DNA from: Escherichia coli
Lineage (GTDB): Bacteria > Pseudomonadota > Gammaproteobacteria > Enterobacterales > Enterobacteriaceae
Strand: one strand, 5' to 3'
Assembly: GCF_003334305.1 (NCBI RefSeq)
Contig: NZ_QOWS01000033.1
DNA: 35,452 nt
In this document: piece by piece, positions 1-35,163 of the stretch
Layout: each line of letters opens with the position of its first letter
How positions within the stretch are numbered: position 1 is the first letter of the stretch
Position numbers and translations under genes: made by a program
The notes under the pieces: generated by a model
Seen by the model: only the letters and a program-made list of their open reading frames with translations
Database searches by the model: none
What the model was told of the DNA's origin: nothing

Positions 1-14
1 TTGGTTTAGGAGAA
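1..14. repeat. Left crossover site of the invertible tail-fibre segment; only one half-site plus the centre is visible at the window edge
   Basis: TTGGTTTAGGAGAA is the reverse complement of 1585-1598 (TTCTCCCAAACCAA) with 13/14 matches. On both copies it encodes the shared peptide (V)GLGE. Confidence 0.6.
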
Positions 15-497
15 GGCTCTGCATTACCGGTTGGGGTGCCTGTTCCGTGGCCTTCAGCCACTCCGCCAACAGGCTGGCTGAAATGCAATGGTGCGGCTTT
101 TTCTGCTGAAGAATACCCGGAACTGGCAAAGGCTTACCCGACCAATAAATTGCCTGATTTACGTGGTGAGTTTATTCGTGGCTGGGATGATGAACGTGGT
201 GTGGATAGTGGGCGAACTCTGCTTTCATCGCAAGGAGATGCTATTCGAAACATTACTGGCGGTTTTGGTCAGTTGCGCGTAAACAGCGAAATTAATGCAA
301 TTGTCGATGTTCAAAGTGTGAGTGGGGCTTTTTACGGAGGTACCTCAGTCCGGAATAACATCAATGTGTCTATGACATACGCTAATGACCGAAAAATCCG
401 ACAAGATGTTCACTTCTCGGCGGCAAATGTTGTTCCAACAGCAAATGAAAATCGTCCACGTAACATCGCCTTTAATTATATTGTGAGGGCCGCATGA
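1..497 (+). CDS. Tail fibre protein gpH, C-terminal variable (receptor-binding) part; 5' end outside window
   Basis: The frame is open from base 3 (..GLGEGSALPVGVPVPWPS..). It has a tail-collar-type motif PTGWLKCNGAAFSAEEYPELAKAY..LPDLRGEFIRGW. The stop overlaps the start of the Tfa gene (ATGATGA). Confidence 0.85.
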   Translation, partial: GLGEGSALPVGVPVPWPSATPPTGWLKCNGAAFSAEEYPELAKAYPTNKLPDLRGEFIRGWDDERGVDSGRTLLSSQGDAIRNITGGFGQLRVNSEINAIVDVQSVSGAFYGGTSVRNNINVSMTYANDRKIRQDVHFSAANVVPTANENRPRNIAFNYIVRAA

Positions 498-1102
498 TGA
501 ATAAAGCTGTATTAAATAGCAAACTCATTGCCATAAAAGCGGGAGACATTATCATTTATAATTATGATGGTGAAACGCGGGAATATATTTCTACATCAAC
601 TGAATATCTCGCTGTCGGCGTCGGTATCCCGGCATGTTCTTGTTTAGATGCTCCGGGCTCAAACAAAGCTGGTTATGCAATTTGTCGTTCTGTAGATTTA
701 AACTCATGGGAATATGTGCCAGACCATCGCGGTGAAGTTGTCTATAGTACCGAAACGGGAGATACCAAAGAAATCACAGCTCCGGGTGATTACCCTGAAA
801 ATACAACCATTATCGCCCCATTAACGCCATACGATAAATGGGATGGTGAGAAATGGGTGACCGATACTGAGGCACAGCATAGCGCCGCAGTAGACGCGGC
901 AGAAGCACAGCGTCAGTCACTGATTGATGCTGCAATGGCTTCCATCAGTCTGATTCAGCTGAAATTACAGGCCGGACGGAAGTTGATGCAGGCAGAAACA
1001 ACCCGGCTTAACGCCGTGCTGGATTACATTGACGCGGTGACGGCAACAGATACCAGCACCGCGCCTGATATTATTTGGCCTGTATTCCCTGAGACTGATT
1101 AA
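494..1102 (+). CDS. Tail fibre assembly chaperone (gpG / Tfa family)
   Basis: 202-aa ORF directly coupled to H. Typical Tfa sequence (..YNYDGETREYI..WEYVPDHRGEVVYSTETG..PLTPYDKWDGEKWVTD..). Confidence 0.9.
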   Translation: MMNKAVLNSKLIAIKAGDIIIYNYDGETREYISTSTEYLAVGVGIPACSCLDAPGSNKAGYAICRSVDLNSWEYVPDHRGEVVYSTETGDTKEITAPGDYPENTTIIAPLTPYDKWDGEKWVTDTEAQHSAAVDAAEAQRQSLIDAAMASISLIQLKLQAGRKLMQAETTRLNAVLDYIDAVTATDTSTAPDIIWPVFPETD

Positions 1103-1331
1103 CCTCAATTAGTATTGGTTCGCCTTTCTCATTAATTGTTAGCTCCATGCCCTGAGGAATTTCTGTCATAGTAAAAAACCAGTTGTCCTCCGGTAATTCA
1201 ATAGCCCCGGTCACGTCATGAAGACCGGGGATTACTTCAGTCAAAGTAACTGGATTAAACAGGCGCACAATAAACCCTCCAGGAAAAAGCATTTGATGAT
1301 GGTCTGCCGTCGTACATCTGGCAGCGGGCAT
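1071..1331 (-). CDS. Small ORF in the inverted half of the cassette; possible alternative tail-fibre chaperone (start uncertain, internal ATG at 1292)
   Basis: It occupies the position where Mu/P1/e14-type cassettes carry the second chaperone (U'). It is only 73-86 aa, has no convincing SD, and overlaps the upstream cassette ORF and the convergent end of G. Confidence 0.3.
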   Translation of the reverse strand: MPAARCTTADHHQMLFPGGFIVRLFNPVTLTEVIPGLHDVTGAIELPEDNWFFTMTEIPQGMELTINEKGEPILIEVNQSQGIQAK

Positions 1332-1599
1332 AAAAGCCGGTATTTGTTACCTGATCATCCACGATCATTGAAACATGAACATTATTAGGTGTGCTCTCGT
1401 AATCCGTTCTTATTCTTTCCGCGATACTGATAAAACGTGAAAGTTTAGGCAGTGCAATTGGGTAAACAACTTTAGCCAGTCCATTATCATTAGATCCACC
1501 GGTTCCAAATACTTCTATTGCACCGTCTGACCAGCGTATCCATGCACCATTGGCATTAGCTCCTCGCTGAATGACATATCTGGCTTCTCCCAAACCAAC
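1255..1599 (-). CDS. Silent alternative tail-fibre C-terminal cassette (Hv'), expressed only after inversion
   Basis: The minus-strand frame reads ..VGLGEARYVIQRGANANGAWIRWSDGAIEVFG..FSWRVYCAPV*. It begins at the same VGLGE joint as the expressed copy. The GxW..W.DG..(Q/V)xG...F.W pattern is typical of phage fibre tip domains. The ATG at 1638 lies outside the invertible segment and is probably not used. Confidence 0.7.
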   Translation of the reverse strand, partial: VGLGEARYVIQRGANANGAWIRWSDGAIEVFGTGGSNDNGLAKVVYPIALPKLSRFISIAERIRTDYESTPNNVHVSMIVDDQVTNTGFYARCQMYDGRPSSNAFSWRVYCAPV

Positions 1600-1610
1600 G
1601 TTTAAGAAAA
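1585..1610. repeat. Right crossover site (gix/hix/cix/pix-like 26-bp site)
   Basis: TTCTCCCAAACCAACGTTTAAGAAAA has two imperfect 12-bp half-sites around a central AA. About 19/26 bases match the hix-type sequence TTCTTGAAAACCAAGGTTTTTGATAA as I recall it. It is inverted relative to bases 1-14 and sits just upstream of the invertase gene. Confidence 0.7.
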
Positions 1611-1665
1611 TGCAGAGGTAACAGCTAACTGGCATCATCTCCGGTTTTTATTCAGGGGGATGATC

Positions 1666-2232
1666 ATGCTTATTGGCTATGTACGCGTGTCAACAAATGA
1701 CCAGAACACCGATTTGCAACGTAATGCACTGAACTGCGCGGGATGTGAGCAGATTTTTGAGGACAAAATCAGTGGCACTAAGTCCGACAGACCGGGGCTG
1801 AAAAAACTACTCAGGACACTATCGGCAGGAGACACGCTGGTTGTCTGGAAGCTGGACAGGTTGGGGCGCAGTATGCGGCATCTTGTTACGCTGATAGAAG
1901 AGTTGCGCCAGCGTGGTGTGAATTTCAGAAGCCTGACTGACAGTATTGATACCAGTACCCCAATGGGTCGTTTCTTTTTTCATGTCATGGGTGCCCTGGC
2001 TGAAATGGAACGCGAACTGATAGTTGAACGTACCAGGGCAGGGCTGGCTGCAGCTCGTGCCAAAGGCAGAGTAGGTGGACGCCGTCCTAAGTTGACCACC
2101 GAACAGTGGGCACAGATTGGGCGTTTACTCGAGGCCGGAGAATCAAGACAGCGTATTGCACTGATTTTTGATGTAGGCGTTTCTACCATTTATAGAAAAT
2201 TTCCGGCAAATAAGATCAATGAATCCCCCTGA
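1666..2232 (+). CDS. Serine DNA invertase, Pin/Gin/Cin/Hin family
   Basis: MLIGYVRVSTNDQNTDLQRNAL..GDTLVVWKLDRLGRSM..MGRFFFHVMGALAEMERELIVERT..GGRRPKL..STIYRKF is near-identical in pattern to Pin/Gin. The ORF track starts 2 codons earlier (1660), but family members start MLIGY. Confidence 0.95.
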   Translation: MLIGYVRVSTNDQNTDLQRNALNCAGCEQIFEDKISGTKSDRPGLKKLLRTLSAGDTLVVWKLDRLGRSMRHLVTLIEELRQRGVNFRSLTDSIDTSTPMGRFFFHVMGALAEMERELIVERTRAGLAAARAKGRVGGRRPKLTTEQWAQIGRLLEAGESRQRIALIFDVGVSTIYRKFPANKINESP

Positions 2233-2280
2233 ATCAGCATTATGTTGATTATCCCTGCAAGCAGACAAATACCGTTATTT

Positions 2281-2298
2281 TGTGTGAATAACGACACA
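2281..2298 (+). promoter_or_regulatory. Candidate Ogr-dependent late promoter element (TGT-N12-ACA dyad) for the FI-FII-E-T-U-D operon
   Basis: TGTGTGAATAACGACACA fits the TGT-N12-ACA dyad described for P2/186/P4 late promoters. It lies 77-94 nt upstream of the FI ATG. Confidence 0.5.
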
Positions 2299-2374
2299 AC
2301 TGCGCTTAGCTGTTTGTCAGGCACAATCACTTCAACATAGGGCGAAGCCTAATCCAATCAGGAGGTTCGCCACT

Positions 2375-3547
2375 ATGGCTCAGGATTACCACCACGGGGT
2401 GCGCGTTGTTGAAGTCAACGAAGGCACCCGATCTATTACCACGGTGAGCACCGCCATCGTGGGTATGGTCTGCACGGGCGATGATGCCGATGCAAAAATG
2501 TTTCCTCTTAATAAACCCGTGCTGATCACTGATGTGCTGACTGCCAGCGGTAAAGCGGGTGAGTCAGGTACTCTGGCCCGTTCGCTGGATGCCATCGCTG
2601 ACCAGGCAAAACCCGTGACCATTGTTGTGCGTGTGCCGCAGGGTGAAACGGAAGACGAAACCACGACCAATATCATCGGCGCAGTGACTGCTGAAGGTAA
2701 AAAAACAGGTATGAAAGCCCTGTTATCTGCCCAGTCACAGCTCGGCGTTAAACCGCGCATTCTCGGCGTGCCAGGCCACGACACCAAGGCGGTAGCTACT
2801 GAGTTGCTGAGCGTGGCGCAAAGCCTGCGTGGATTTGCTTACCTGTCAGCGTATGGCTGCAAGACAGTGCAGGAGGCGATCACTTACCGCGAAAACTTCA
2901 GCCAGCGCGAAGGGATGCTGATCTGGCCTGACTTTACTGGCTGGGACACGGTGCTGAATGCCGAAGCAACGGCATATGCCACCGCCCGTGCGCTTGGTCT
3001 GCGCGCCAAAATTGACGAGCAGACCGGATGGCACAAAAGCCTGTCCAACGTGGGCGTGAACGGTGTCACCGGAATTTCTGCAGATGTGTTCTGGGATCTG
3101 CAGGACCCGGCAACCGATGCAGGTCTGCTGAACCAGAACGACGTCACCACGCTTGTGCGTAAAGACGGTTTCCGCTTCTGGGGTTCCCGCTGCCTGAGTG
3201 ATGACCCGCTCTTTGCCTTCGAAAACTACACCCGCACGGCGCAGGTGCTGATGGACACGATGGCAGAAGCACACATGTGGGCGGTGGATAAACCGCTTAA
3301 CCCGTCGCTGGCCCGCGACATTATCGAAGGTATCCGCGCCAAAATGCGCAGCCTGGTCAGTCAGGGCTATCTCATTGGTGGTGATTGCTGGCTGGATGAG
3401 TCGGTGAACGACAAAGACACGCTGAAAGCCGGAAAACTCACCATCGACTACGACTACACGCCAGTGCCGCCACTTGAAAACCTGATGCTGCGTCAGCGCA
3501 TCACCGATCAGTACCTGGTGAATTTCGCCAGCCAGGTCAGCGCGTAA
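2375..3547 (+). CDS. Contractile tail sheath protein (gpFI)
   Basis: 390-aa ORF preceded by AGGAGG. The sequence [13 protein letters not shown].. is the characteristic P2 FI-type N-terminus, and the position in the operon fits. Confidence 0.95.
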
Positions 3548-3556
3548 GGGGACAAC

Positions 3557-4072
3557 ATGGCATTACCACGCAAATTAAAACACCTGAACCTGTTTAACGA
3601 CGGGAACAACTGGCAGGGGATCGTTGAGTCGCTGACGCTGCCGAAATTTACCCGCAAATATGAGAAGTATCGCGGCGGCGGAATGCCGGGTGCGGTGGAT
3701 GTGGATCTGGGGCTTGATGACAGTGCGCTGGACACAGAATTTTCCATTGGTGGTACTGAATTGCTGCTGTTTAAACAGATGGGTAAAGCCACGGTGGATG
3801 GCATCCAGCTGCGCTTTACCGGCTCTATTCAGCGTGACGATACCGGGGAAGTGCAGGCCGTGGAGCTTGTCGTGCGTGGACGTCACAAAGAAGTGGATTC
3901 CGGCGAGTGGAAGACGGGCGAAAGCAACACCACCAAAGTGACCAGTACCAACAGCTACGCGAAGCTGACCATCAATGGTGAGGTGCTCTATGAAGTGGAC
4001 CTTATCAACATGGTGGAAATTGTGGACGGTGTGGACCTGATGGAAGCGCACCGCAACGCCCTCGGCCTCTGA
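3557..4072 (+). CDS. Tail tube protein (gpFII)
   Basis: 171-aa ORF 10 nt after FI. MALPRKLKHLNLFNDGNNWQG.. is a P2 FII-type sequence. Confidence 0.95.
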   Translation: MALPRKLKHLNLFNDGNNWQGIVESLTLPKFTRKYEKYRGGGMPGAVDVDLGLDDSALDTEFSIGGTELLLFKQMGKATVDGIQLRFTGSIQRDDTGEVQAVELVVRGRHKEVDSGEWKTGESNTTKVTSTNSYAKLTINGEVLYEVDLINMVEIVDGVDLMEAHRNALGL

Positions 4073-4126
4073 TATATCTGAACGGCGCGGGATACCGCGC
4101 CAGAACCCAATTGACAGGACAGCAAA

Positions 4127-4429
4127 ATGAGCGATAAGCAGACTGAAAAGACCATTCAACTGGATACCCCCATCAAGCGCGGTAAAACAGAAATCACCGA
4201 AATTGTGCTGCGTAAACCGCAGTCCGGTGCGCTACGCGGTACACGCCTGCAGGCCATTATGGATATGGATGTAAACGCGATGATGACCGTGATCCCCCGC
4301 ATCTCCAGTCCGGCACTGACTGCACAGGAAATTGCAGAGATGGACCCGGCAGATCTCACTGCCATGTCGGTTGAGGTTGTCACTTTTTTGTTGAAGAAGT
4401 CGGTGCTTGCCGGTTTACCGACAGCCTGA
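4127..4429 (+). CDS. Tail assembly chaperone gpE
   Basis: 100-aa ORF between the tube and tape-measure genes. It contains the slippery site near its 3' end. Confidence 0.9.
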   Translation: MSDKQTEKTIQLDTPIKRGKTEITEIVLRKPQSGALRGTRLQAIMDMDVNAMMTVIPRISSPALTAQEIAEMDPADLTAMSVEVVTFLLKKSVLAGLPTA

Positions 4430-4563
4430 CGGTTGACGATCTGGTGGCAGATATCGCCACCATTTTTCACTGGCCGCCATCCGTTACTGACGTTATGCCG
4501 CTGACCGAAGTGCTGGAATGGCGGTATAAAGCGATTCAGAGAAGCGGGGCCAACGATGAGTGA
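4127..4563 (+). CDS. gpE+E' frameshift-extended tail chaperone (join 4127..4389, 4389..4563)
   Basis: Hand translation of the -1 frame after the heptamer gives VEEVGACRFTDSLTVDDLVADIATIFHWPPSVTDVMPLTEVLEWRYKAIQRSGANDE*. The TGA at 4561-4563 overlaps the T start. Confidence 0.8.
4384..4390 (+). other. -1 programmed frameshift slippery heptamer T TTT TTG
   Basis: TTTTTTG sits in the frame T.TTT.TTG of gpE, the same heptamer reported for P2 E/E+E'. The -1 frame stays open to 4563. Confidence 0.8.
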
Positions 4564-7500
4564 TAACAACCTGCGTCTGCAGGTCATTCTTAATGCGGTT
4601 GACAAGCTCACCCGCCCATTTCGATCTGCGCAGGCCAGTTCAAGAGAACTGGCTGCTGCTGTCAAAAAATCCCGCGATGCAATAAAGCAGCTTGATCAGG
4701 CCGGGAGCAGTCTGGACAGCTTCCGAAAGCTGCAGGCAGAAAATCAGAAATTAGGCGACAGGCTGAACTATGCCCGCCAGCGTGCAAATTTGCTCAGTCA
4801 GGAACTGGGAGCGATGGGGCCGCCTTCGCAACGTCAGGTTGTTGCTCTGGGCCGTCAACGGCTGGCTGTTCAGCGCCTGGAAGAACGCCAGAAAAAGCTG
4901 CAGCAGCAGACGGCGCTTGTGCGTGCTGAACTGTACCGGGCGGGAATTTCTGCGAAAGACGATGCGGGAGCAACTGCCCGTTTAGCCCGTGAAACATCAC
5001 GTTATAACCAGGAACTTTCGAAACAGGAGGCGCGGCTGAAGCGACTGGGGGAAGCTCAGCGCAGGATGAATGCAGCGCGTGCCAGTTATGCCCGTTCGCT
5101 GGAGGTGCGTGATCGTATTGCAGGTGCCGGAGCCACCACCACGGCTGCAGGGCTGGCAATGGGTGCGCCAGTGATGGCGGCAGTAAAAAGCTATACCAGC
5201 ATGGAAGATGCCATGAAAGGTGTGGCAAAGCAGGTCAATGGTCTGCGTGACGATAATGGCAACCGCACTGCACGTTTTTATGAAATGCAGGATGCCATCA
5301 AGGCTGCCAGCGAACAGTTGCCGATGGAAAACGGTGCGGTGGACTTCGCTGCACTGGTTGAAGGTGGTGCGCGCATGAACGTCGCAAACCCTGACGACAG
5401 CTGGGAAGATCAGAAACGTGACCTGCTGGCCTTCGCCAGTACGGCAGCAAAGGCGGCAACAGCCTTTGAGCTGCCAGCGGATGAACTGTCAGAAAGTCTG
5501 GGGAAAATCGCCCAGCTCTACAAAATCCCCACCCGCAATATTGAACAGCTCGGTGATGCGCTGAACTATCTGGATGATAACGCCATGTCGAAAGGGGCAG
5601 ACATCATTGATGTGATGCAACGTCTGGGCGGTGTGGCTGACCGTCTGGATTATCGTAAAGCGGCGGCGCTGGGTTCCACCTTCCTGACACTGGGCGCTGC
5701 GCCGGAGGTTGCAGCCAGTGCAGCAAACGCGATGGTGCGTGAATTGTCCATTGCCACCATGCAAAGCAAGAGTTTCTTTGAAGGGATGAATCTGCTGAAA
5801 CTCAATCCTGAAGTGATTGAAAAGCAGATGACGAAGGATGCGATGGGAACCATCCAGCGCGTGCTGGAGAAGGTAAACGCGCTGCCGCAGGACAAGCGCC
5901 TGTCTGCCATGACTATGTTGTTTGGTAAAGAGTTTGGCGATGACGCGGCGAAACTGGCAAACAACCTGCCGGAACTGCAGCGTCAGTTAAAACTGACAGC
6001 GGGCAATGATGCGCTTGGCTCCATGCAGAAAGAATCCGACATTAACAAGGATTCACTTTCTGCGCAGTGGTTGCTGGTCAAAACCGGAGCGCAGAACACC
6101 TTCAGCAGCCTGGGCGAAACGCTGCGCCAGCCGCTGATGGATATTCTGTACACGGTGAAAAGCGTCACGGGGGCGTTGCGTCGCTGGGTGGAAGCTAACC
6201 CGGAACTGACAGGCACACTGATGAAAGCATCGGCTGTTGTGGCTGCGGTTACCGTCGGCCTCGGCACCTTAGCGGTGGCGCTGGCTGCAGTGCTGGGGCC
6301 GCTGGCAGTGATCCGTCTGGGATTCTCTGTGTTGGGTATCAAAACGTTATCTTCCGTTACGGCAGCAGTAACTCGAACCAGCAGCGCGTTGTCCTGGCTG
6401 GCTGGCGCACCACTGGCACTGCTGCGACGCGGGCTTGCTTCATCGGGCAACGCCGCAGGTTTACTTACTGCGCCGTTGTCGTCTTTGCGCCGCACGGCAT
6501 CACTGACGGGAAATGTCCTGAAAACTGTAGCAGGTGCGCCGGTTGCACTTTTGCGGTCTGGATTATCCGGTTTACGTGCGGTTGCTGTGATGTTTATGAA
6601 TCCACTGGCAGCACTACGCGGCGGGCTGGCTGCCGCAGGCACGGTGCTGCGAGTACTGGCATCTGGTCCACTGGCGATGTTGCGCGTTGCCCTGTATGCC
6701 GTATCTGGTCTGTTAGGTGCTCTGCTCAGTCCGATAGGTCTTGTGGTTACTGCACTGGCGGGTGTGGCACTGGTTGTCTGGAAATACTGGCAACCCATCA
6801 CCGCATTTCTCGGTGGCGTGGTGGAAGGATTCAAAGCGGCGGCAGGTCCCATCAGTGCAGCGTTCGAACCGCTTAAGCCTGTGTTCCAGTGGATTGGTGA
6901 CAAAGTGCAGGCGCTGTGGGGCTGGTTTACTGATCTGCTGACGCCCGTTAAGTCGACTTCTGCCGAACTGCAGAGCGCAGCGGCAATGGGGCGACGATTC
7001 GGGGAGGCACTGGCGGAAGGGCTGAATATGGTCATGCATCCGCTGGACTCCCTGAAATCCGGCGTTTCCTGGTTGCTGGAGAAGCTCGGCATTATCAGTA
7101 AAGAGGCCGCAAAGGCAAAACTGCCGGAAAGCGTGACGCGTCAGCAACCTGCGACGGTGAATGCAGACGGTAAAGTGATGATGCCATCGGGTGGTTTTCC
7201 GTCATGGGGATATGGCTTTGCGGGGATGTATGACAGCGGCGGCTATATCCCGCGCGGGCAGTTTGGCATCGTCGGTGAAAACGGGCCGGAAATTGTTAAC
7301 GGCCCGGCAAATGTGACCAGCCGGAGAAATACAGCTGCACTGGCTGCCGTTGTTGCCGGAATGATGGGCGTTGCTGCCGCGCCTGCAGAGCTTCCACCGT
7401 TGCACCCTTTGGCACTTCCCGCGAAAGGCGGCGAAGCGATGGTGAGTCGTGCAGCCACTGTGCCGCCCGTTCAACGGATTGAGGCACCGATGCAGATCAT

Positions 7501-7633
7501 CATTCAGACGCAGCCAGGACAAAGTGCGCAGGATATTGCGCGGGAGGTGGCCCGCCAGCTTGATGAACGTGAACGCAGGCTGAAGGCAAAAGCCAGGAGT
7601 AACTACAGCGATCAGGGGGGATACGACGCATGA
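4556..7633 (+). CDS. Tail tape measure protein (gpT)
   Basis: 1025-aa ORF with a coiled-coil N-terminus and a central hydrophobic repeat block. Its position after E/E' fits. Confidence 0.95.
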   Translation: MSDNNLRLQVILNAVDKLTRPFRSAQASSRELAAAVKKSRDAIKQLDQAGSSLDSFRKLQAENQKLGDRLNYARQRANLLSQELGAMGPPSQRQVVALGRQRLAVQRLEERQKKLQQQTALVRAELYRAGISAKDDAGATARLARETSRYNQELSKQEARLKRLGEAQRRMNAARASYARSLEVRDRIAGAGATTTAAGLAMGAPVMAAVKSYTSMEDAMKGVAKQVNGLRDDNGNRTARFYEMQDAIKAASEQLPMENGAVDFAALVEGGARMNVANPDDSWEDQKRDLLAFASTAAKAATAFELPADELSESLGKIAQLYKIPTRNIEQLGDALNYLDDNAMSKGADIIDVMQRLGGVADRLDYRKAAALGSTFLTLGAAPEVAASAANAMVRELSIATMQSKSFFEGMNLLKLNPEVIEKQMTKDAMGTIQRVLEKVNALPQDKRLSAMTMLFGKEFGDDAAKLANNLPELQRQLKLTAGNDALGSMQKESDINKDSLSAQWLLVKTGAQNTFSSLGETLRQPLMDILYTVKSVTGALRRWVEANPELTGTLMKASAVVAAVTVGLGTLAVALAAVLGPLAVIRLGFSVLGIKTLSSVTAAVTRTSSALSWLAGAPLALLRRGLASSGNAAGLLTAPLSSLRRTASLTGNVLKTVAGAPVALLRSGLSGLRAVAVMFMNPLAALRGGLAAAGTVLRVLASGPLAMLRVALYAVSGLLGALLSPIGLVVTALAGVALVVWKYWQPITAFLGGVVEGFKAAAGPISAAFEPLKPVFQWIGDKVQALWGWFTDLLTPVKSTSAELQSAAAMGRRFGEALAEGLNMVMHPLDSLKSGVSWLLEKLGIISKEAAKAKLPESVTRQQPATVNADGKVMMPSGGFPSWGYGFAGMYDSGGYIPRGQFGIVGENGPEIVNGPANVTSRRNTAALAAVVAGMMGVAAAPAELPPLHPLALPAKGGEAMVSRAATVPPVQRIEAPMQIIIQTQPGQSAQDIAREVARQLDERERRLKAKARSNYSDQGGYDA

Positions 7634-8115
7634 TGATGGTGCTGGGATTGTACGTGTTTATGCTGCGCACCGTGCCGTATCAGGAGCTGCAGTATCAACG
7701 CAGCTGGCGACATGCGGCAAACAGCCGGGTAAACCGACGTCCGTCCACGCAGTTTCTGGGACCGGACAACGACATGCTGACGCTTTCCGGTGTTCTTATG
7801 CCGGAGATAACAGGTGGCAGGCTGTCGTTGCTGGCACTGGAGCAGATGGCAGAACAGGGGAAAGCATGGCCCCTGATTGAAGGCAGCGGCACGATTTATG
7901 GCATGTATGTGATTGAGGGACTGAATCAGACTAAAACGGAGTTTTTCCGCGACGGTATGCCGCGCCGGATTGAGTTCACCCTGTCGCTCAAACGGGTGGA
8001 TGAATCCCTGTCCGATATGTTCGGTGATCTCAGTGCGCAACTGAATAATCTGCAGGAAACGGCAACGTCTGCCTTAAGCGATATCAGTAAAACGGTGGGA
8101 GGGCTGCTGTCGTGA
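7630..8115 (+). CDS. Tail protein gpU
   Basis: 161 aa, ATGA overlap with T. MMMVLGLYVFMLRTVPYQELQ.. is a P2 gpU-type sequence. Confidence 0.9.
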   Translation: MMMVLGLYVFMLRTVPYQELQYQRSWRHAANSRVNRRPSTQFLGPDNDMLTLSGVLMPEITGGRLSLLALEQMAEQGKAWPLIEGSGTIYGMYVIEGLNQTKTEFFRDGMPRRIEFTLSLKRVDESLSDMFGDLSAQLNNLQETATSALSDISKTVGGLLS

Positions 8116-9212
8116 ATTTCAGCTCTGAACTGCTTAACAAAAGCAACAAAACTCCGGCATTCAGCATCAGTATTGAGGGCAGGGATATCACTACTGTGCT
8201 GGATAACCGCCTGATGAGTCTGACTCTGACGGACAATCGGGGCTTTGAAGCAGACCAGCTTGATCTGGAGCTGGACGATGCCGACGGGAAAATCGTGCTG
8301 CCGCGCCGTGGTGCGGTCATTACGCTGGCGCTGGGCTGGAAGGGGCAGCCGCTTTTCCCGAAAGGGGCATTCACGGTGGACGAGATTGAACACACTGGCG
8401 CACCGGACCGCCTGACTATCCGGGCGCGAAGTGCTGATTTTCGGGAAACGCTGAATACCCGCCGTGAAAAATCGTGGCACAAGACCACCATTGGGGAAGT
8501 GGTGAAGGAGATAGCCGCGCGGCACAAGCTGAAGATGGTACTGGGTAAAGACCTGTCGGATAAGCTCGTGGAGCATATAGACCAGACTAATGAGAGTGAC
8601 GGTAGTTTTCTGATGCGGCTGGCGCGCCAGTACGGTGCTATTGCGTCGGTGAAAAATGGCAATCTGTTATTCATCCGGCAGGGACAGGGCAAAAGTGCCA
8701 GCGGTAAACCACTGCCGGTGATCACTATCACACGTAAGGACGGCGACAGTCACCGCTTTACCCTGGCAGATCGCGGAGCCTATACGGGCATAATTGCCAG
8801 CTGGTTGCATACCCGCGAACCCGCGAAGAAAGAAAGCACCACGGTGAAGCGTAAGCGCAGGACTAAGAAGCAGAAGAAAGAGCCGGAAGCGAAGCAGGGC
8901 GATTACCTGGTGGGTACGGATGAAAACGTGCTGGTACTTAATCGCACTTATGCCAACCGGAGCAACGCTGAACGGGCAGCGAAAATGCAGTGGGAACGCC
9001 TGCAACGCGGCGTTGCGTCATTCTCGCTACAACTGGCGGAAGGGCGGGCAGATCTCTACACGGAAATGCCAGTGAAAGTCAGTGGCTTTAAACAGCCGAT
9101 AGATGATGCGGAATGGACCATTACGACTCTGACACATACCGTCAGCCCGGATAATGGTTTTACGACCAGTCTTGAGCTTGAAGTGAAGGTTGATGATCTC
9201 GAAATGGAATGA
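8112..9212 (+). CDS. Tail/late protein gpD
   Basis: 366 aa, GTGA overlap with U. The ..ISIEGRDIT..LMSLTLTDNRGFEADQLDLELDD.. motif is typical of gpD. Confidence 0.9.
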   Translation: MNFSSELLNKSNKTPAFSISIEGRDITTVLDNRLMSLTLTDNRGFEADQLDLELDDADGKIVLPRRGAVITLALGWKGQPLFPKGAFTVDEIEHTGAPDRLTIRARSADFRETLNTRREKSWHKTTIGEVVKEIAARHKLKMVLGKDLSDKLVEHIDQTNESDGSFLMRLARQYGAIASVKNGNLLFIRQGQGKSASGKPLPVITITRKDGDSHRFTLADRGAYTGIIASWLHTREPAKKESTTVKRKRRTKKQKKEPEAKQGDYLVGTDENVLVLNRTYANRSNAERAAKMQWERLQRGVASFSLQLAEGRADLYTEMPVKVSGFKQPIDDAEWTITTLTHTVSPDNGFTTSLELEVKVDDLEME

Positions 9213-9302
9213 TTCTTCACAATGGAGAACTTTTAAGTTTGAAAAATGGAATAATGCGATATCATTATTGTGAATTTAGCAAAAATGGGGAGAACTCGAA
9301 AA

Positions 9303-9521
9303 ATGATGATTTGCCCACTGTGTGGAAGTGCCGCCCATACTCGCAGCAGTTTTCAGGTATCTTCATTGACCAAAGAGCGTTACAACCAGTGCCAGAACAT
9401 TAACTGCAGCCATACTTTTGTTACCCATGAAACTTTTGTTCGTTCGATTGCAACGCCAAAAGAGTCAAATCCGGTTCAGCCGCATCCTCATAAATTTAAA
9501 CAGGTGGGTTTGCCGATTTAA
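9303..9521 (+). CDS. ogr: Ogr late-gene transcriptional activator (zinc-finger)
   Basis: MMICPLCGSAAHTRSS...KERYNQCQNINCSHTF has the Cys-X2-Cys...Cys-X4-Cys pattern of P2 Ogr. Starting at 9303 gives 72 aa. The ORF track start at 9270 and the ATG at 9285 are alternatives. Confidence 0.9.
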   Translation: MMICPLCGSAAHTRSSFQVSSLTKERYNQCQNINCSHTFVTHETFVRSIATPKESNPVQPHPHKFKQVGLPI

Positions 9522-9585
9522 ATGGCGACATAACTACATGATTTAAAACTATACTTTTCTATAAGTTGAGGTTAAATTAACAATG

Positions 9586-9762
9586 CCTGACGTTAGCGGG
9601 GATTTATCCCCACTCCGTAGATATGTAGTTTGTCGCTTTGCGACTGCGGACCGATTACCTGATTGCCATGTAATCGGACGCCGACTTGTTAAGCTTTCTG
9701 GGCTAACTGGTTGTTATTTTTTATTTAGTTAGGGCCATGCGCTTGCGCTAAGAGACGTCAGG
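9586..9762 (+). ncRNA. Candidate structured RNA upstream of the RT (retron msr/msd-like or DRT-type template RNA); ends not determined
   Basis: There is no credible ORF. A long-range helix pairs 9586-9598 (CCTGACGTTAGCG) with 9746-9751 + 9756-9762 (CGCTAA / CGTCAGG), leaving a 4-nt bulge. It encloses abutting hairpins at 9598-9611, 9614-9650, 9651-9677 (8-bp stem CCGATTAC/GTAATCGG) and 9701-9736. Folded by eye only. Confidence 0.45.
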
Positions 9763-9782
9763 TATCTATGGAGGAACAAGTT

Positions 9783-9956
9783 ATGGATACAAACGAACTT
9801 GGCTTAGTTAAGGCGCGTGTTGAACTGATCACCGCTATGCTCAAATGCGCAACCGCGTTTGTTGGCTTAGTTGGTGCGGTTTACGCCGTTCTTAACATGG
9901 CCTTCAACTACAACAATTTAACTCATGACAATAGAAGTTCAAAGGTGGGAAGATAA
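9783..9956 (+). CDS. Small hydrophobic protein (57 aa, one predicted TM helix), candidate effector/toxin partner of the RT
   Basis: GGAGGA at 9770-9775 lies 7 nt before the ATG at 9783. The sequence is MDTNELGLVKARVELITAMLKCATAFVGLVGAVYAVLNMAFNYNNLTHDNRSSKVGR, with a hydrophobic core CATAFVGLVGAVYAVLNMAF. Its 3' end overlaps the RT start by 32 nt. It could instead be part of the ncRNA. Confidence 0.5.
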   Translation: MDTNELGLVKARVELITAMLKCATAFVGLVGAVYAVLNMAFNYNNLTHDNRSSKVGR

Positions 9957-10698
9957 ATTTGAGATTAAGCCCGGGGTTTGGGTTTATGTCCCAAGCGTTG
10001 AGGCACGTAAAGTCGGAGGGAAGATACTTCAGGCTGTCAGAAACAAGTGGATTCCGCCACTCTATTTTTACCATCTAAGAACTGGTGGGCATCTTAAAGC
10101 TGCCAGATTACACTTAAAAAGTGATTTTTTTGCCGTTGTTGATATTAAACAATTTTTTCAGTCAACGAGCCGTAGTCGTATCACCCGTGATCTAAAGAGC
10201 TACTTCACCTATTCTCAAGCGCGGGAAATCTCAACATTTTCAACTGTAAGAAACTTGTCCCATAGTCCACATAAGCATGTCCTCCCTTTTGGTTTTGTTC
10301 AATCTCCAATACTTGCAACCCTCTGCTTAGATAAAAGTTATTTTGGTAGCTTACTACGCCGATTGAACAAACATCATGATCTCAAGCTAAGTGTGTTTAT
10401 GGATGATGTGATCATCTCGTCAAACGATTTGGCCCAATTACAAGCGGCTTACGACGAAGCACTAGTGGCAATGCGTAAATCTGGTTATCAAGCCAACATG
10501 AGTAAAACTCAGGCACCATCGTCAAAGATTAGCGTGTTTAATTTAACTTTGAGTAAGGGAGTTATGAAAGTCACATCTCAGAAAATGAGTGACTTCCTGA
10601 TTGATTTCTATTCAAGCAATTATGAGCCGCACAGAATAGGGGTCAAAAACTACGTCGAAGCTGTTAATCCAGGGCAAGCGAAACTCTTTAAGTTGTAA
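9925..10698 (+). CDS. Minimal reverse transcriptase (257 aa), retron/DRT-like, unclassified
   Basis: RT motifs seen in order: KVGGKIL (motif 1-like), FFAVVDIKQFFQSTS (motif A, Asp at 10141-10143), LPFGFVQSPILATLCL (motif B'), LSVFMDDVIISS (motif C, FMDD at 10396-10407), GYQANMSKTQ (motif D), ISVFNLTLS (motif E). Only ~50 aa follow motif E. Confidence 0.85.
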   Translation: MTIEVQRWEDKFEIKPGVWVYVPSVEARKVGGKILQAVRNKWIPPLYFYHLRTGGHLKAARLHLKSDFFAVVDIKQFFQSTSRSRITRDLKSYFTYSQAREISTFSTVRNLSHSPHKHVLPFGFVQSPILATLCLDKSYFGSLLRRLNKHHDLKLSVFMDDVIISSNDLAQLQAAYDEALVAMRKSGYQANMSKTQAPSSKISVFNLTLSKGVMKVTSQKMSDFLIDFYSSNYEPHRIGVKNYVEAVNPGQAKLFKL

Positions 10699-10767
10699 TT
10701 GCGATCGCATGTAGTAGCAACTGGGCTTGACTGAATGTCTGCCGCCATTTTGCCGCCACTACTAAAG

Positions 10768-10795
10768 AAAAAAGGGCTACGCTTTCACGTAACCC
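10768..10795 (-). terminator. Rho-independent terminator immediately after ssrA
   Basis: The minus strand reads GGGTTACG-TGAAAG-CGTAGCCC followed by TTTTTT. It begins 12 nt after the CCA end. Confidence 0.75.
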
Positions 10796-10806
10796 CTTGA
10801 TTTATT

Positions 10807-11169
10807 TGGTGGAGCTGGCGGGAGTTGAACCCGCGTCCGAAATTCCTACATCCTCGGTACTACATGCTTAGTCAGTCTTTACATTCGCTTGCCAGCTGCG
10901 GACGGACACGCCACTAACAAACTAGCCTGATTAAGTTTTAACGCTTCAACCCCAGGCAGGGCTTCCACGCGATCTCTTTTGGGTTTGACCTCTCTTGATC
11001 CCCGTCCTAAGAGCGGAGGCTAGGGAGAGAGGGCTCTAAGCAGGTTATTAAGCTGCTAAAGCGTAGTTTTCGTCGTTTGCGACTATTTTTTGCGGCTTTT
11101 TACGAGGCCAACCGCCCCTCGGCATGCACCTTGGGTTTCGCAAATCCCGTCGAATCCAGAATCAGCCCC
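10807..11169 (-). ncRNA. ssrA: tmRNA (SsrA), 363 nt
   Basis: The reverse complement reads GGGGCTGATTCTGGATTCGACGGGATTTGCG...GGTTCAACTCCCGCCAGCTCCACCA. The tag ORF GCAAACGACGAAAACTACGCTTTAGCAGCTTAA (ANDENYALAA*) is at 11080-11048. Confidence 0.98.
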
Positions 11170-11383: not shown

Positions 11384-11866
11384 TTAACGGTGGGCGTTTT
11401 TCATGATACGTGCTTTATCCACCTGCCATTCGCGTTCTTTGATATCTGAACGTTTATCGTGCTGTTTTTTACCTTTGGCGACGCCGATTTTCACTTTGCA
11501 CCAGGCATTTTTCCAGTACAGGGAGAGCGCCACTACGGTATAGCCTTCTCGATTGACGCGACCGTACAATGAGTCCAGTTCGCGTTGGTTGAGAAGTAAC
11601 TTGCGGGTACGGGTAGGATCGCACACCACATGCGTGGAGGCCACGGCCATTGGCGTGATGTTAGCGCCAAACAGAAATGCCTCTCCGTCACGCAGAAGGA
11701 CGTAGCTGTCGCTGATATTGGCTTTTCCTGCGCGCAGGGATTTAACCTCCCAGCCTTGCAGGGCAAGTCCCGCTTCGAACTCTTCTTCGATAAAGTATTC
11801 GTGACGGGCGCGCTTGTTAAGCGCGATGGTCGCTGAACCAGGTTTATGTGCTTTTTTCTTCGTCAT
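11384..11866 (-). CDS. smpB: SsrA-binding protein SmpB
   Basis: The 160-aa sequence [45 protein letters not shown].. is recognised. It lies adjacent to ssrA. Confidence 0.98.
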
Positions 11867-29018: not shown

Positions 29019-29041
29019 AGTGTTGCCTTTTTGTTATCAAT

Positions 29042-29070
29042 AAAAAAGGCCCCCCGATTTGGGAGGCCTT
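29042..29070 (-). terminator. pheA attenuator terminator hairpin
   Basis: The minus strand reads AAGGCCTCCCAAATCGGGGGGCCTTTTTTA, between pheL and pheA. Confidence 0.85.
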
Positions 29071-29116
29071 ATTGTTCGTCTTCGCATTCTGTTTCACACG
29101 ACGAAACGCCTCCCAT

Positions 29117-29164
29117 TCAGGGGAAGGTAAAAAAGAATGCGAAGAAAAACGGTGTGTGTTTCAT
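29117..29164 (-). CDS. pheL: pheA leader peptide
   Basis: The minus strand reads ATGAAACACACACCGTTTTTCTTCGCATTCTTTTTTACCTTCCCCTGA, giving MKHTPFFFAFFFTFP*. It has seven Phe codons. Codon 4 is ACA (Thr), where I recall ATA (Ile) in K-12. Confidence 0.9.
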   Translation of the reverse strand: MKHTPFFFAFFFTFP

Positions 29165-29220
29165 GTTTGTTTCCTTAAGTGACTTTAGTACAGTACCCGT
29201 ACTGTTTTCACGCTGTCAAC

Positions 29221-32460: not shown

Positions 32461-32521
32461 CCTAAAGAATCAAGACGATCCGGTACGCGTGATTTTCTTT
32501 TCACATTAATCTGGTCAATAA

Positions 32522-32551
32522 CCTTGAATAATTGAGGGATGACCTCATTTA
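32522..32551 (+). promoter_or_regulatory. clpB sigma-32 promoter
   Basis: CCTTGAAT (32522-32529), 13 nt, CCTCATTTA (32543-32551). Confidence 0.75.
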
Positions 32552-32589
32552 ATCTCCAGTAGCAACTTTGATCCGTTATGGGAGGAGTT

Positions 32590-35163
32590 ATGCGTCTGGA
32601 TCGTCTTACTAATAAATTCCAGCTTGCTCTTGCCGATGCCCAATCACTTGCACTCGGGCACGACAACCAATTTATCGAACCACTTCATTTAATGAGCGCC
32701 CTGCTGAATCAGGAAGGGGGTTCGGTTAGTCCTTTATTAACATCCGCTGGCATCAATGCTGGCCAGTTGCGCACAGATATCAATCAGGCATTAAATCGTT
32801 TACCGCAGGTTGAAGGTACTGGTGGTGATGTCCAGCCATCACAGGATCTGGTGCGCGTTCTTAATCTTTGCGACAAGCTGGCGCAAAAACGTGGTGATAA
32901 CTTTATCTCGTCAGAACTGTTCGTTCTGGCGGCACTTGAGTCTCGCGGCACGCTGGCCGACATCCTGAAAGCAGCAGGGGCGACCACCGCCAACATTACT
33001 CAAGCGATTGAACAAATGCGTGGAGGTGAAAGCGTGAACGATCAAGGTGCTGAAGACCAACGTCAGGCTTTGAAAAAATATACCATCGACCTTACCGAAC
33101 GAGCCGAACAGGGCAAACTCGATCCGGTGATTGGTCGTGATGAAGAAATTCGCCGTACCATTCAGGTGCTGCAACGTCGTACTAAAAATAACCCGGTACT
33201 GATTGGTGAACCCGGCGTCGGTAAAACTGCCATCGTTGAAGGTCTGGCGCAGCGTATTATCAACGGCGAAGTGCCGGAAGGATTGAAAGGCCGCCGCGTA
33301 CTGGCGCTGGATATGGGCGCGCTGGTGGCTGGGGCGAAATATCGCGGTGAGTTTGAAGAACGTTTAAAAGGCGTGCTTAACGATCTTGCCAAACAGGAAG
33401 GCAACGTCATCCTGTTTATCGACGAATTACATACCATGGTCGGCGCGGGTAAAGCCGATGGCGCAATGGACGCCGGAAACATGCTGAAACCGGCGCTGGC
33501 GCGTGGTGAATTGCACTGCGTAGGTGCCACGACGCTTGACGAATATCGCCAGTACATTGAAAAAGATGCTGCGCTGGAACGTCGTTTCCAGAAAGTGTTT
33601 GTTGCCGAGCCTTCCGTTGAAGATACCATTGCGATTCTGCGTGGCCTGAAAGAACGTTACGAATTGCACCACCATGTGCAAATTACTGACCCGGCAATTG
33701 TTGCAGCGGCGACGTTGTCTCATCGCTACATTGCTGACCGTCAGCTGCCGGATAAAGCCATCGACCTGATCGATGAAGCAGCATCCAGCATTCGTATGCA
33801 GATTGACTCAAAACCAGAAGAACTCGACCGACTCGATCGTCGTATCATCCAGCTCAAACTGGAACAACAGGCGTTAATGAAAGAGTCTGATGAAGCCAGT
33901 AAAAAACGCCTGGATATGCTCAACGAAGAACTGAGCGACAAAGAACGTCAGTACTCCGAGTTAGAAGAAGAGTGGAAAGCAGAGAAGGCATCGCTTTCTG
34001 GTACGCAGACCATTAAAGCGGAACTGGAACAGGCGAAAATCGCTATTGAACAGGCTCGCCGTGTGGGGGACCTGGCGCGGATGTCTGAACTGCAATACGG
34101 CAAAATCCCGGAACTGGAAAAGCAACTGGAAGCCGCAACGCAGCTCGAAGGCAAAACTATGCGTCTGTTGCGTAATAAAGTGACCGATGCCGAAATTGCT
34201 GAAGTGCTGGCGCGTTGGACGGGGATTCCGGTTTCTCGCATGATGGAAAGCGAGCGCGAAAAACTGCTGCGTATGGAACAAGAACTGCACCATCGCGTCA
34301 TTGGTCAGAACGAAGCGGTTGATGCGGTATCTAACGCTATTCGCCGTAGCCGTGCGGGGTTGGCGGATCCAAATCGCCCGATTGGTTCATTCCTGTTCCT
34401 CGGCCCAACGGGTGTGGGGAAAACTGAGCTTTGTAAGGCGCTGGCGAACTTTATGTTTGATAGCGACGAGGCGATGGTCCGTATCGATATGTCCGAGTTT
34501 ATGGAGAAACACTCGGTGTCTCGTCTGGTTGGTGCGCCTCCGGGATATGTCGGTTATGAAGAAGGTGGCTACCTGACCGAAGCTGTGCGTCGTCGTCCGT
34601 ATTCCGTCATCCTGCTGGATGAAGTGGAAAAAGCGCATCCGGATGTCTTCAACATTCTGTTGCAGGTACTGGATGATGGTCGTCTGACTGACGGGCAGGG
34701 GAGAACGGTCGACTTCCGTAATACGGTTGTCATTATGACCTCTAACCTCGGTTCCGATTTGATTCAGGAACGCTTCGGTGAACTGGATTATGCGCACATG
34801 AAAGAGCTGGTGCTCGGTGTGGTAAGCCATAACTTCCGTCCGGAATTCATTAACCGTATTGATGAAGTGGTGGTCTTCCATCCGCTGGGTGAACAGCACA
34901 TTGCCTCGATTGCGCAGATTCAGTTGAAACGTCTGTACAAACGTCTGGAAGAACGTGGTTATGAAATCCACATTTCTGACGAGGCGCTGAAACTGCTGAG
35001 CGAGAACGGTTACGATCCAGTCTATGGTGCACGTCCTTTGAAACGTGCTATCCAGCAGCAGATCGAAAACCCGCTGGCACAGCAAATACTGTCTGGTGAA
35101 TTGGTTCCGGGTAAAGTGATTCGCCTGGAAGTTAATGAAGACCGGATTGTCGCCGTCCAGTAA
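32590..35163 (+). CDS. clpB: Disaggregase chaperone ClpB
   Basis: [27 protein letters not shown].., 857 aa, with two Walker A motifs ([16 protein letters not shown]). The ORF-track start at 32578 is 4 codons upstream, over the RBS GGAGGAG. Confidence 0.98.
33034..33036 (+). other. clpB: Internal GTG start (Val149) for the short ClpB isoform
   Basis: A GTG at codon 149 is preceded by GGAGGTGAAAGC. Dual translation initiation of clpB is established for E. coli. Confidence 0.7.

Follow-up and report, generated by a model that had tools for sequence, protein, structure and literature searches.

The stretch of Escherichia coli DNA analyzed here (35,452 nucleotides (nt) of contig NZ_QOWS01000033.1, assembly GCF_003334305.1; the whole stretch is referred to as the window hereafter) contains a P2-family prophage integrated in ssrA, the gene for transfer-messenger RNA (tmRNA). 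Between ogr, the last conserved phage gene, and the phage attachment site (attP), this prophage carries a compact cassette composed of a structured RNA, a gene for a small hydrophobic peptide (SP), and a reverse transcriptase (RT) gene. The best explanation overall, to which we give a probability of roughly 0.7, is that the ogr–attP interval is a replaceable slot and that the module now filling it works like a type VI retron. The likeness would lie in the working, as judged by analogy; the cassette is not a demonstrated member of that type. The integration event and the terminator are textbook: the prophage is of a known kind, at a known site, and preserves its target gene in a known way. The cargo is the part out of the ordinary, and the initial annotation of this DNA did not identify it. 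As read from the sequence, it is built like a retron, with an RT, a neighbouring RNA whose ends are joined by inverted repeats, and a small putative effector.

The first component is a structured, msr-msd-like non-coding RNA of about 190 nt on the plus strand, located between ogr and the SP gene (9580–9799 as the extent of the covariance-model match; fold z-score −3.2). When 9450–10850 was searched against Rfam at a permissive threshold, only the tmRNA was found, and neither a retron msr nor any other family was matched. The layout of this RNA is constant among its relatives: a 5′ arm of 7–11 bp is followed by TAG(C/G), a hairpin, a short GTCAC-NNN-GTGAT hairpin and a variable middle, and then by a near-invariant ATGCGC-N2–5-GCGC hairpin, the 3′ arm, the Shine-Dalgarno sequence (SD) of SP, and the ATG. 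The conserved hairpins of the window copy lie at 9598–9611, 9632–9644 and 9739–9748. The covariance model, R1, gave one match per locus, always directly upstream of the RT gene, in 62 of the 83 family loci, about 15 of the 62 being absent from the model-building set; elsewhere in 901 kb, on both strands, it had no other match.

Two covarying helices were found in this RNA. One is P1, which closes the RNA as the inverted repeats of a retron do. Its a2-like 5′ arm (9585–9593, then TTAGC) pairs with an a1-like 3′ arm (9755–9763) that follows the ATGCGC-NN-GCGC hairpin. This layout was found in 49 of the 83 loci, as compared with about 3% expected by chance. In a MAFFT alignment of 47 sequences, P1 was 97% paired, and six of its seven pairs had changed on both sides, the paired fraction falling to 32–41% when the partner column was slid; because the loci were chosen partly by the complementarity of their ends, the percentage is inflated, but the compensatory changes are not. 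The TAG after the 5′ arm (9594–9596; T15, A16 and G17 of the alignment) is invariant, and its G9596 is the candidate priming G, although in many members it falls inside hairpin 1.

The other helix is P2, formed between an anti-SD arm (9613–9622) and a 3′ arm (9764–9773) that overlaps the GGAGGA SD of SP, an overlap shared by 37 of 42 family members. Since the P2 arms occur in shifting registers (49% paired in the MAFFT alignment and at best 75% in the model-based one), cognate and permuted arms were compared sequence by sequence: the cognate arms reached a mean of 8.5 bp against 6.3 bp for the permuted ones, and none of 20,000 permutations was as high. P1 and P2 cross, their 3′ arms being contiguous, and folds forced into one or the other are on average about 1.5 kcal/mol apart. 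The linker looks too short for both helices to exist together once hairpin 1 is formed.

The second component, SP (9783–9956, plus strand), is a hydrophobic peptide of 57 amino acids (aa) ending in ...VLNMAFNY... The RefSeq start at 9783 is preceded by the GGAGGA SD (9770–9775), and a longer open reading frame (ORF) starting from 9768 is the less likely alternative. An equivalent ORF occurs in about 70 of the 83 loci; its product has a single hydrophobic helix and terminates in a conserved ...(N/S)MAFNY. In the window copy, the best 19-residue hydropathy window scores 1.94. The codons of the N and the Y vary synonymously across the family, and thus SP is coding. SP had no match in PADLOC or NCBIfam. 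The RT gene begins within the end of SP, overlapping it by 32 nt in the +1 frame (9925–9956). The same frame relation was found in 51 of 59 loci; among these 59, the SP stop lies a median of 29 nt inside the RT gene, and an SD-like motif precedes RT in only 10. Most RT genes of the family therefore have no SD of their own and start inside the end of SP, so that the syntheses of the two proteins are probably coupled. Such coupling would be odd if SP is a repressed toxin. In a Klebsiella pneumoniae chromosomal copy located beside umuDC (L003, 5783–6909), SP is fused in frame to RT to give a protein of 302 aa, and the RNA model matches upstream of it.

The third component is the compact RT itself (9925–10698, plus strand; 257 aa; Pfam RVT_1, 77 bits), which has the catalytic FMDD. 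It belongs to a tight family of proteins of about 255 aa with an invariant DD in the family alignment. This family comprises 550 clusters in the protein collection, all of which are named just "reverse transcriptase domain-containing protein". The AlphaFold model is of high predicted local confidence (pLDDT 94.8). The top 17 fold matches in the PDB obtained with Foldseek were all retron RTs (TM 0.65–0.76; for the Ec86 RT, E = 1.9e-14 and TM 0.73), and in a sequence search of the PDB only the Ec86 RT was matched, at E of about 1e-3. The modelled RT thus folds like retron RTs, yet by sequence it is a member of no retron type.

The RNA–SP–RT trio recurs across Proteobacteria with no conserved third gene, none being found within 2 kb among the 83 loci. 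At least 145 RT loci exist among species-representative genomes of alpha-, beta- and gamma-proteobacteria, and the K. pneumoniae chromosomal copy is very common (about 7,800 collection blocks). Within the phage and plasmid collections, the RT turned up in a few plasmids and in 13 K. pneumoniae prophage records that are almost identical, and nowhere else. These 13 records (OK490395 and 12 others) represent the same prophage as that of the window, with RTs 99.2–99.6% identical, which indicates that the element crosses genera; 12 of them end about 109 nt past the RT gene.

Taken together with what is known of type VI retrons, these features suggest the following mode of action. The RT would use the structured RNA as both template and primer. 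SP would be a toxic effector that is left untranslated while the RNA is in the P2 conformation. On phage infection, a shift in the RNA, or in the product reverse-transcribed from it, would allow SP to be produced; the lysogen would then abort the infection, by which the host population of the prophage would be protected. A putative role in defending the lysogen against other phages is suggested by the type VI analogy and by the position of the cassette as prophage cargo.

Several observations weigh against this reading. One group concerns the RT sequence. The PADLOC retron RT models gave 40–73 bits throughout, which is below member level (best score 63 for the window RT and 73 in the family), whereas the sole genuine type VI control, an RT encoded on a Bacteroides plasmid, reached 279 bits on RT_VI and exceeded 100 on most of the other retron types. 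On the NCBIfam retron models, the RT scored 49.5 bits against a cut-off of 235. Of the two signatures of retron RTs, NAXXH in region X and VTG in RT7 (PMC7736814), the former has become A-(A/L)-x-x-H in the family, with A59 and H63 invariant, and the latter VFN, with F205 and N206 invariant. Another group concerns the genes and signals around the RT. The Cro/C1-type helix-turn-helix (HTH) gene is absent between SP and RT, HTH-like ORFs occurring near at most 4 of the 83 loci, and a scan of the plus strand from ogr to the RNA gave no sigma-70 promoter for the latter. The third point is that, of the 20 E. coli carriers listed, at least 5 have the insertion sequence IS421 inside RNA hairpin 1 (target 9599–9610; L093, about 702–2040). 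There it cuts off the 5′ arm with the TAGC from everything downstream in the module, so that the module is dispensable and possibly costly. The last point is that no copy of the anti-SD or SD arm above background was found in the msd region, and for this reason a trans-acting cDNA riboregulator, as proposed for Vpa2, was rejected as the means of control.

One alternative takes part of this evidence in another way: the cassette may be a divergent type VI sub-lineage that has lost the HTH antitoxin/regulator gene, with nothing in it beyond the known type. RT_VI is indeed the best PADLOC model for both the window RT and the K. pneumoniae homologue, with near full-length coverage. Type VI systems share the RNA–SP–RT order, a similarly compact RT and an SD hidden in the RNA; in the original data set, an HTH call is missing from about 22% of the type VI entries; and the SP of Vpa2 has 55 aa with an aromatic C-terminus (10.64898/2026.04.27.721009). 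Against it stand not only the low RT_VI scores but also the fact that the single genuine control outscores the family on nearly every retron model, and that the window RT and the control are 28% identical over only 155 residues. In addition, the rarity of HTH-like neighbours means that the gene is absent family-wide rather than recently lost, and SP overlaps RT directly. We therefore regard this alternative as unlikely, while rating it above the two rivals of the next paragraph. Somewhat better placed, still on the tentative side, is the proposal that the cassette represents an unclassified and widespread minimal retron-like family. Such a family would consist of the RNA, a peptide of 40–60 aa and an RT of about 255 aa with no HTH protein, its mutually exclusive P1/P2 switch would couple the start of reverse transcription to the translation of toxin and RT, and it would be a family that PADLOC, NCBIfam and Rfam do not recognize. 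In the literature searched, no such HTH-less family was described and no "type XIV" was named. The RT may still turn out to belong to a divergent lineage within type VI.

A more distant alternative is that the RT does not act as a retron RT at all. The RNA would then serve as a scaffold, or as a template for another product (concatemeric or homopolymer cDNA, as in DRT2 and DRT9), and SP would be a downstream effector or a membrane anchor. The altered NAXXH and VTG motifs and the generic scores on hidden Markov models fit this idea, and DRT9 and group-II-like RTs are also present among the fold matches. However, these come below the 17 retron RTs, the UG/DRT models score lower on the family than the retron models do (33 bits at most), and the RNA has the layout of a retron RNA, with end-closing inverted repeats, TAG(C/G) after the 5′ arm, internal hairpins and a long variable middle. 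We thus consider this mechanism improbable. Least probable is that the cassette serves the phage or itself rather than host defence, as an addiction (toxin–antitoxin-like) module or as a regulator of lysogeny or excision beside the attachment site (att): a small hydrophobic peptide under RNA-mediated translational repression does resemble a type I toxin–antitoxin system, the cassette sits at the prophage edge, and IS421 inactivates the RNA in several strains, but recognizable P2-type gpD lies upstream only in the window and in 3 of the other 82 loci (L016, L055 and L063; ogr in two of them), so that the module is not tied to the life cycle of this phage, and related RNA–SP–RT systems have been shown to defend against phages (10.1101/2025.10.22.683967).

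The retron-like cassette occupies a slot that spans 9522–10733 (plus strand). Upstream of it lies ogr (9303–9521, plus strand; Pfam Ogr_Delta, 78 bits), encoding the late-gene activator, a zinc-finger protein of 72 aa. When compared with Cartapus, an isolated phage of the genus Elveevirus, homology stops inside ogr (at about 9433) and resumes at 10734. The G+C content over 9200–10800 is 39–45%, as compared with about 55% in the tail genes. Among 5,426 complete E. coli genomes, the attP arm was found joined to ssrA in 238, whose slots contain a 160-aa BRCT-like gene in 171 cases and the RT cassette in 28. At least 80% of 9209–11169 is present in 28 of the 5,426 genomes, several at 100% identity. 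The 160-aa gene, which is on the opposite strand and has a weak BRCT match, was also found in the slot of Cartapus, of phage 500465-1 and of one E. coli record. In Klebsiella phage 4LV2017, attR comes 72 nt after ogr and the slot has no gene. The same cassette follows gpD–ogr in K. michiganensis and in a P2-like prophage of Kalamiella; a tRNA-Met gene adjoins it in the latter, so this slot is also in use among phages that integrate at a different site. The ogr–attP interval is thus a replaceable cargo slot: the proposal in the initial annotation that it is an additional site for accessory genes (morons) holds, the flanks being conserved and the contents of relatives unrelated. A one-off insertion was ruled out by the alternative cargo in relatives.

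The same annotation had placed the cargo at this end rather than at the classical P2 loci. Cargo is present there, but the contrast was overstated because five accessory ORFs occur at the gpA–Q (tin/old) locus of this prophage as well (L001, 15796–18210; L001 is the corresponding region of E. coli strain C2, described below). One of them encodes a DUF4145 protein with a weak PADLOC match to PD-T7-4 (26 bits). Moreover, the stretch separating int from the far att copy (L001, 6154–8529) contains two genes, whose products of 397 and 375 aa have no Pfam, NCBIfam or PADLOC match. At this position Cartapus has a different gene, of 401 aa, which makes the int–att side a second variable slot.

The far junction of the prophage was read in strain C2, which is 100% identical over the finding (window position = L001 position − 30,621). 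The final 45 nt of ssrA (10807–10851, minus strand) recur there exactly, at L001 5996–6040 beyond int, the two copies being 35,432 bp apart; this stretch is the att core. The duplicated fragment predicted for the far junction is thus present, and the RT cassette is inside the att-bounded element, within the 35,432-bp repeat unit. The gene order of the C2 element is int, CI, cII, fil, replication gene, portal, terminase, capsid, lysis, tail, ogr, small ORF, RT and ssrA, with int at L001 8526–9545, inside the repeat-bounded element. The order expected of Peduoviridae was found: FI, FII, E, T, U and D are collinear and followed by ogr, and int, CI and the replication genes lie across att. The annotation of a P2-like prophage in the tmRNA gene is therefore borne out by gpD, ogr, the Peduoviridae tail operon, the 45-bp repeat and int. 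The element is an apparently complete 35.4-kb P2-family prophage (186/Elveevirus type) in the 3′ end of ssrA, recombined across the 45-bp core. Since the two copies of the core match exactly, ssrA is expected to survive excision unchanged. Past the far att copy, a CP4-57-type integrase gene with its own terminator was found (L001, 4601–5830), so that ssrA is occupied by a tandem array of two or more elements.

The target gene, ssrA (10807–11169, minus strand), is a full-length tmRNA gene by both ARAGORN and Rfam (363 nt; tag ANDENYALAA; 295.8 bits; CCA end at 10807), in agreement with the initial annotation. The DNA beyond the CCA end is the left arm of attP (10734–10806, minus strand). This conserved arm contains an intrinsic terminator that serves ssrA in the lysogen: a 12-pair stem and a T run, at 10798–10771 on the minus strand, 8 nt past the CCA end, according to the terminator scan. 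The terminator had correctly been assigned to the prophage side, but its position, given as 10768–10795, was about 3 nt off (10771–10798). Likewise, all the DNA 3′ of the CCA end is phage DNA, as the direct abutment claimed earlier requires; the junction, however, is not a point but the 45-nt stretch common to phage and host, and the crossover therefore cannot be placed within it. The arm and the core (10734–10851) are 95.8% identical to the Cartapus free-phage genome beside its core. Since Cartapus carries the 73-nt terminator arm, the 45-bp core and the int-side arm of the far junction contiguously, the terminator is a fixed part of attP in this lineage. With a copy of the ssrA 3′ end and a terminator in attP, the lysogen retains an intact tmRNA gene whose terminator is supplied by the phage. 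The mature 3′ end of the ssrA RNA is produced by processing. The claim that the formation of this end depends on phage sequence accordingly holds for transcription termination only: the 45-nt core is identical in attP and the bacterial site attB, and the CCA is encoded. Elements that integrate into the 3′ ends of tRNA genes or of ssrA normally bring such a terminator with them. For those at ssrA, it is already known that the end of the gene comes from the prophage (PMC10107115). In some E. coli genomes, a further site without annotation (H56–H61) matches 77 nt of the window (10745–10821), made up of part of the attP arm and 15 nt at the start of the core; a related phage integrated elsewhere may account for it.

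The late (tail) module of the prophage, which includes tail-fibre assembly genes, spans 1–9212 on the plus strand and is 95–98% identical to Peduoviridae phages; Pfam matches, including Caudo_TAP, agree with this assignment. It contains the sheath protein FI (2375–3547), the tube protein FII (3557–4072), the tape measure (4556–7633), gpU (7630–8115) and gpD (8112–9212; Pfam Phage_GPD), all on the plus strand. A Gin-type invertase gene (1660–2232, plus strand; Pfam Resolvase) adjoins oppositely oriented tail-fibre assembly ORFs, and this segment (1071–2232) is not defence cargo but the invertible host-range segment usually found at the Z/fun position. On the host side, smpB lies just beyond ssrA (11384–11866), and the Rfam matches farther along the flank, the Phe leader (29040–29165) and the small RNA RyfD (32471–32609), are ordinary E. 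coli features.

The RT family escapes the defence profile libraries tested (PADLOC and NCBIfam), and the RNA escapes Rfam. Should the cassette prove to function in defence, it would offer a clean example in which to study how an RNA structure gates a toxin. It would also be among the smallest retron-like systems, might provide a compact RT for retron-based editing, and would add a class to the prophage-encoded immunity that current surveys undercount. The slot, for its part, is a modest refinement of the published hotspot maps of P2, in that the ogr–attP side is named and delimited.

Among known systems, the type VI retrons are the closest. Their genes are arranged in the order non-coding RNA, SP, HTH and RT, their SP is small, hydrophobic and toxic, and its SD is sequestered in the RNA; a single RNA both serves as template and encodes the toxin, and the multicopy single-stranded DNA is scarce at rest in Vpa2 and Eco12 (10.1101/2025.10.22.683967; 10.64898/2026.04.27.721009). 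Like Vpa2, Sen3 and Eco12, the cassette has a structured RNA, a small hydrophobic peptide gene and a compact RT in this order, inverted repeats that close the RNA, and a sequestered ribosome-binding site for the peptide; toxicity of the peptide is a property of type VI that would be carried over by analogy. Three differences are evident. One is that the cassette has no Cro/C1-type HTH gene, nor is one conserved in its family. Another is that its RT, with NAXXH and VTG altered, gives 63 bits on RT_VI, against 279 for one genuine member. The last is that its SP is shorter than the cl2075/2760/3272 peptides (75–79 aa), has an NY motif of its own and overlaps the RT start. The sequence comparison with type VI rests on the Bacteroides plasmid RT; Retron-Eco12 and Vpa2 were compared by description.

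Retrons are not new to P2- and P4-family elements: Ec67 and Ec86 are carried by 186-related prophages and Ec73 by a P4-like element, and the Abi-P2 RT lies at Z/fun. They resemble the cassette in being RT modules carried as accessory cargo of a P2-family element and expected to exclude other phages. They differ from it in their location, which is the cos-proximal (tin/old) or Z/fun locus rather than ogr–attP, and in being classified retron or Abi RTs with larger effectors.

As for the slot, variable regions of P2-like phages have been published at gpA–Q (tin/old) and Z/fun, between a tail protein and CI (a third region; 10.1101/2024.10.15.618418), and at the int–att and int–primase hotspots (PMC13586616; PMC9122126; int–att in PMC13586616). 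The present slot resembles these hotspots in that it is a small locus between conserved anchors, where unrelated cargo is swapped fast among near-identical phages. It differs in that the ogr–attP side is not named separately in them, whereas here its limits are given to the base (about 9433/9522 and 10733), together with counts of its occupancy in E. coli. The integration follows that of other ssrA elements, namely CP4-57 in K-12 and the Fels-2-type phages: insertion in the 3′ end of ssrA, a duplicated end fragment, a downstream flank supplied by the element, and tandem arrays (Williams 2003, as cited in PMC10107115). The 45-nt repeat is exact here, whereas the excision of CP4-57 is reported to delete T357 (PMC10107115). 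Finally, the nearest phages are Cartapus and 4LV2017 (Peduoviridae, Elveevirus): both share the tail operon and ogr with the window prophage, and Cartapus also shares the attP arm and core. The three differ in the slot, which holds the BRCT-like gene of 160 aa on the opposite strand in Cartapus, no gene in 4LV2017, and the RT cassette in the window prophage.

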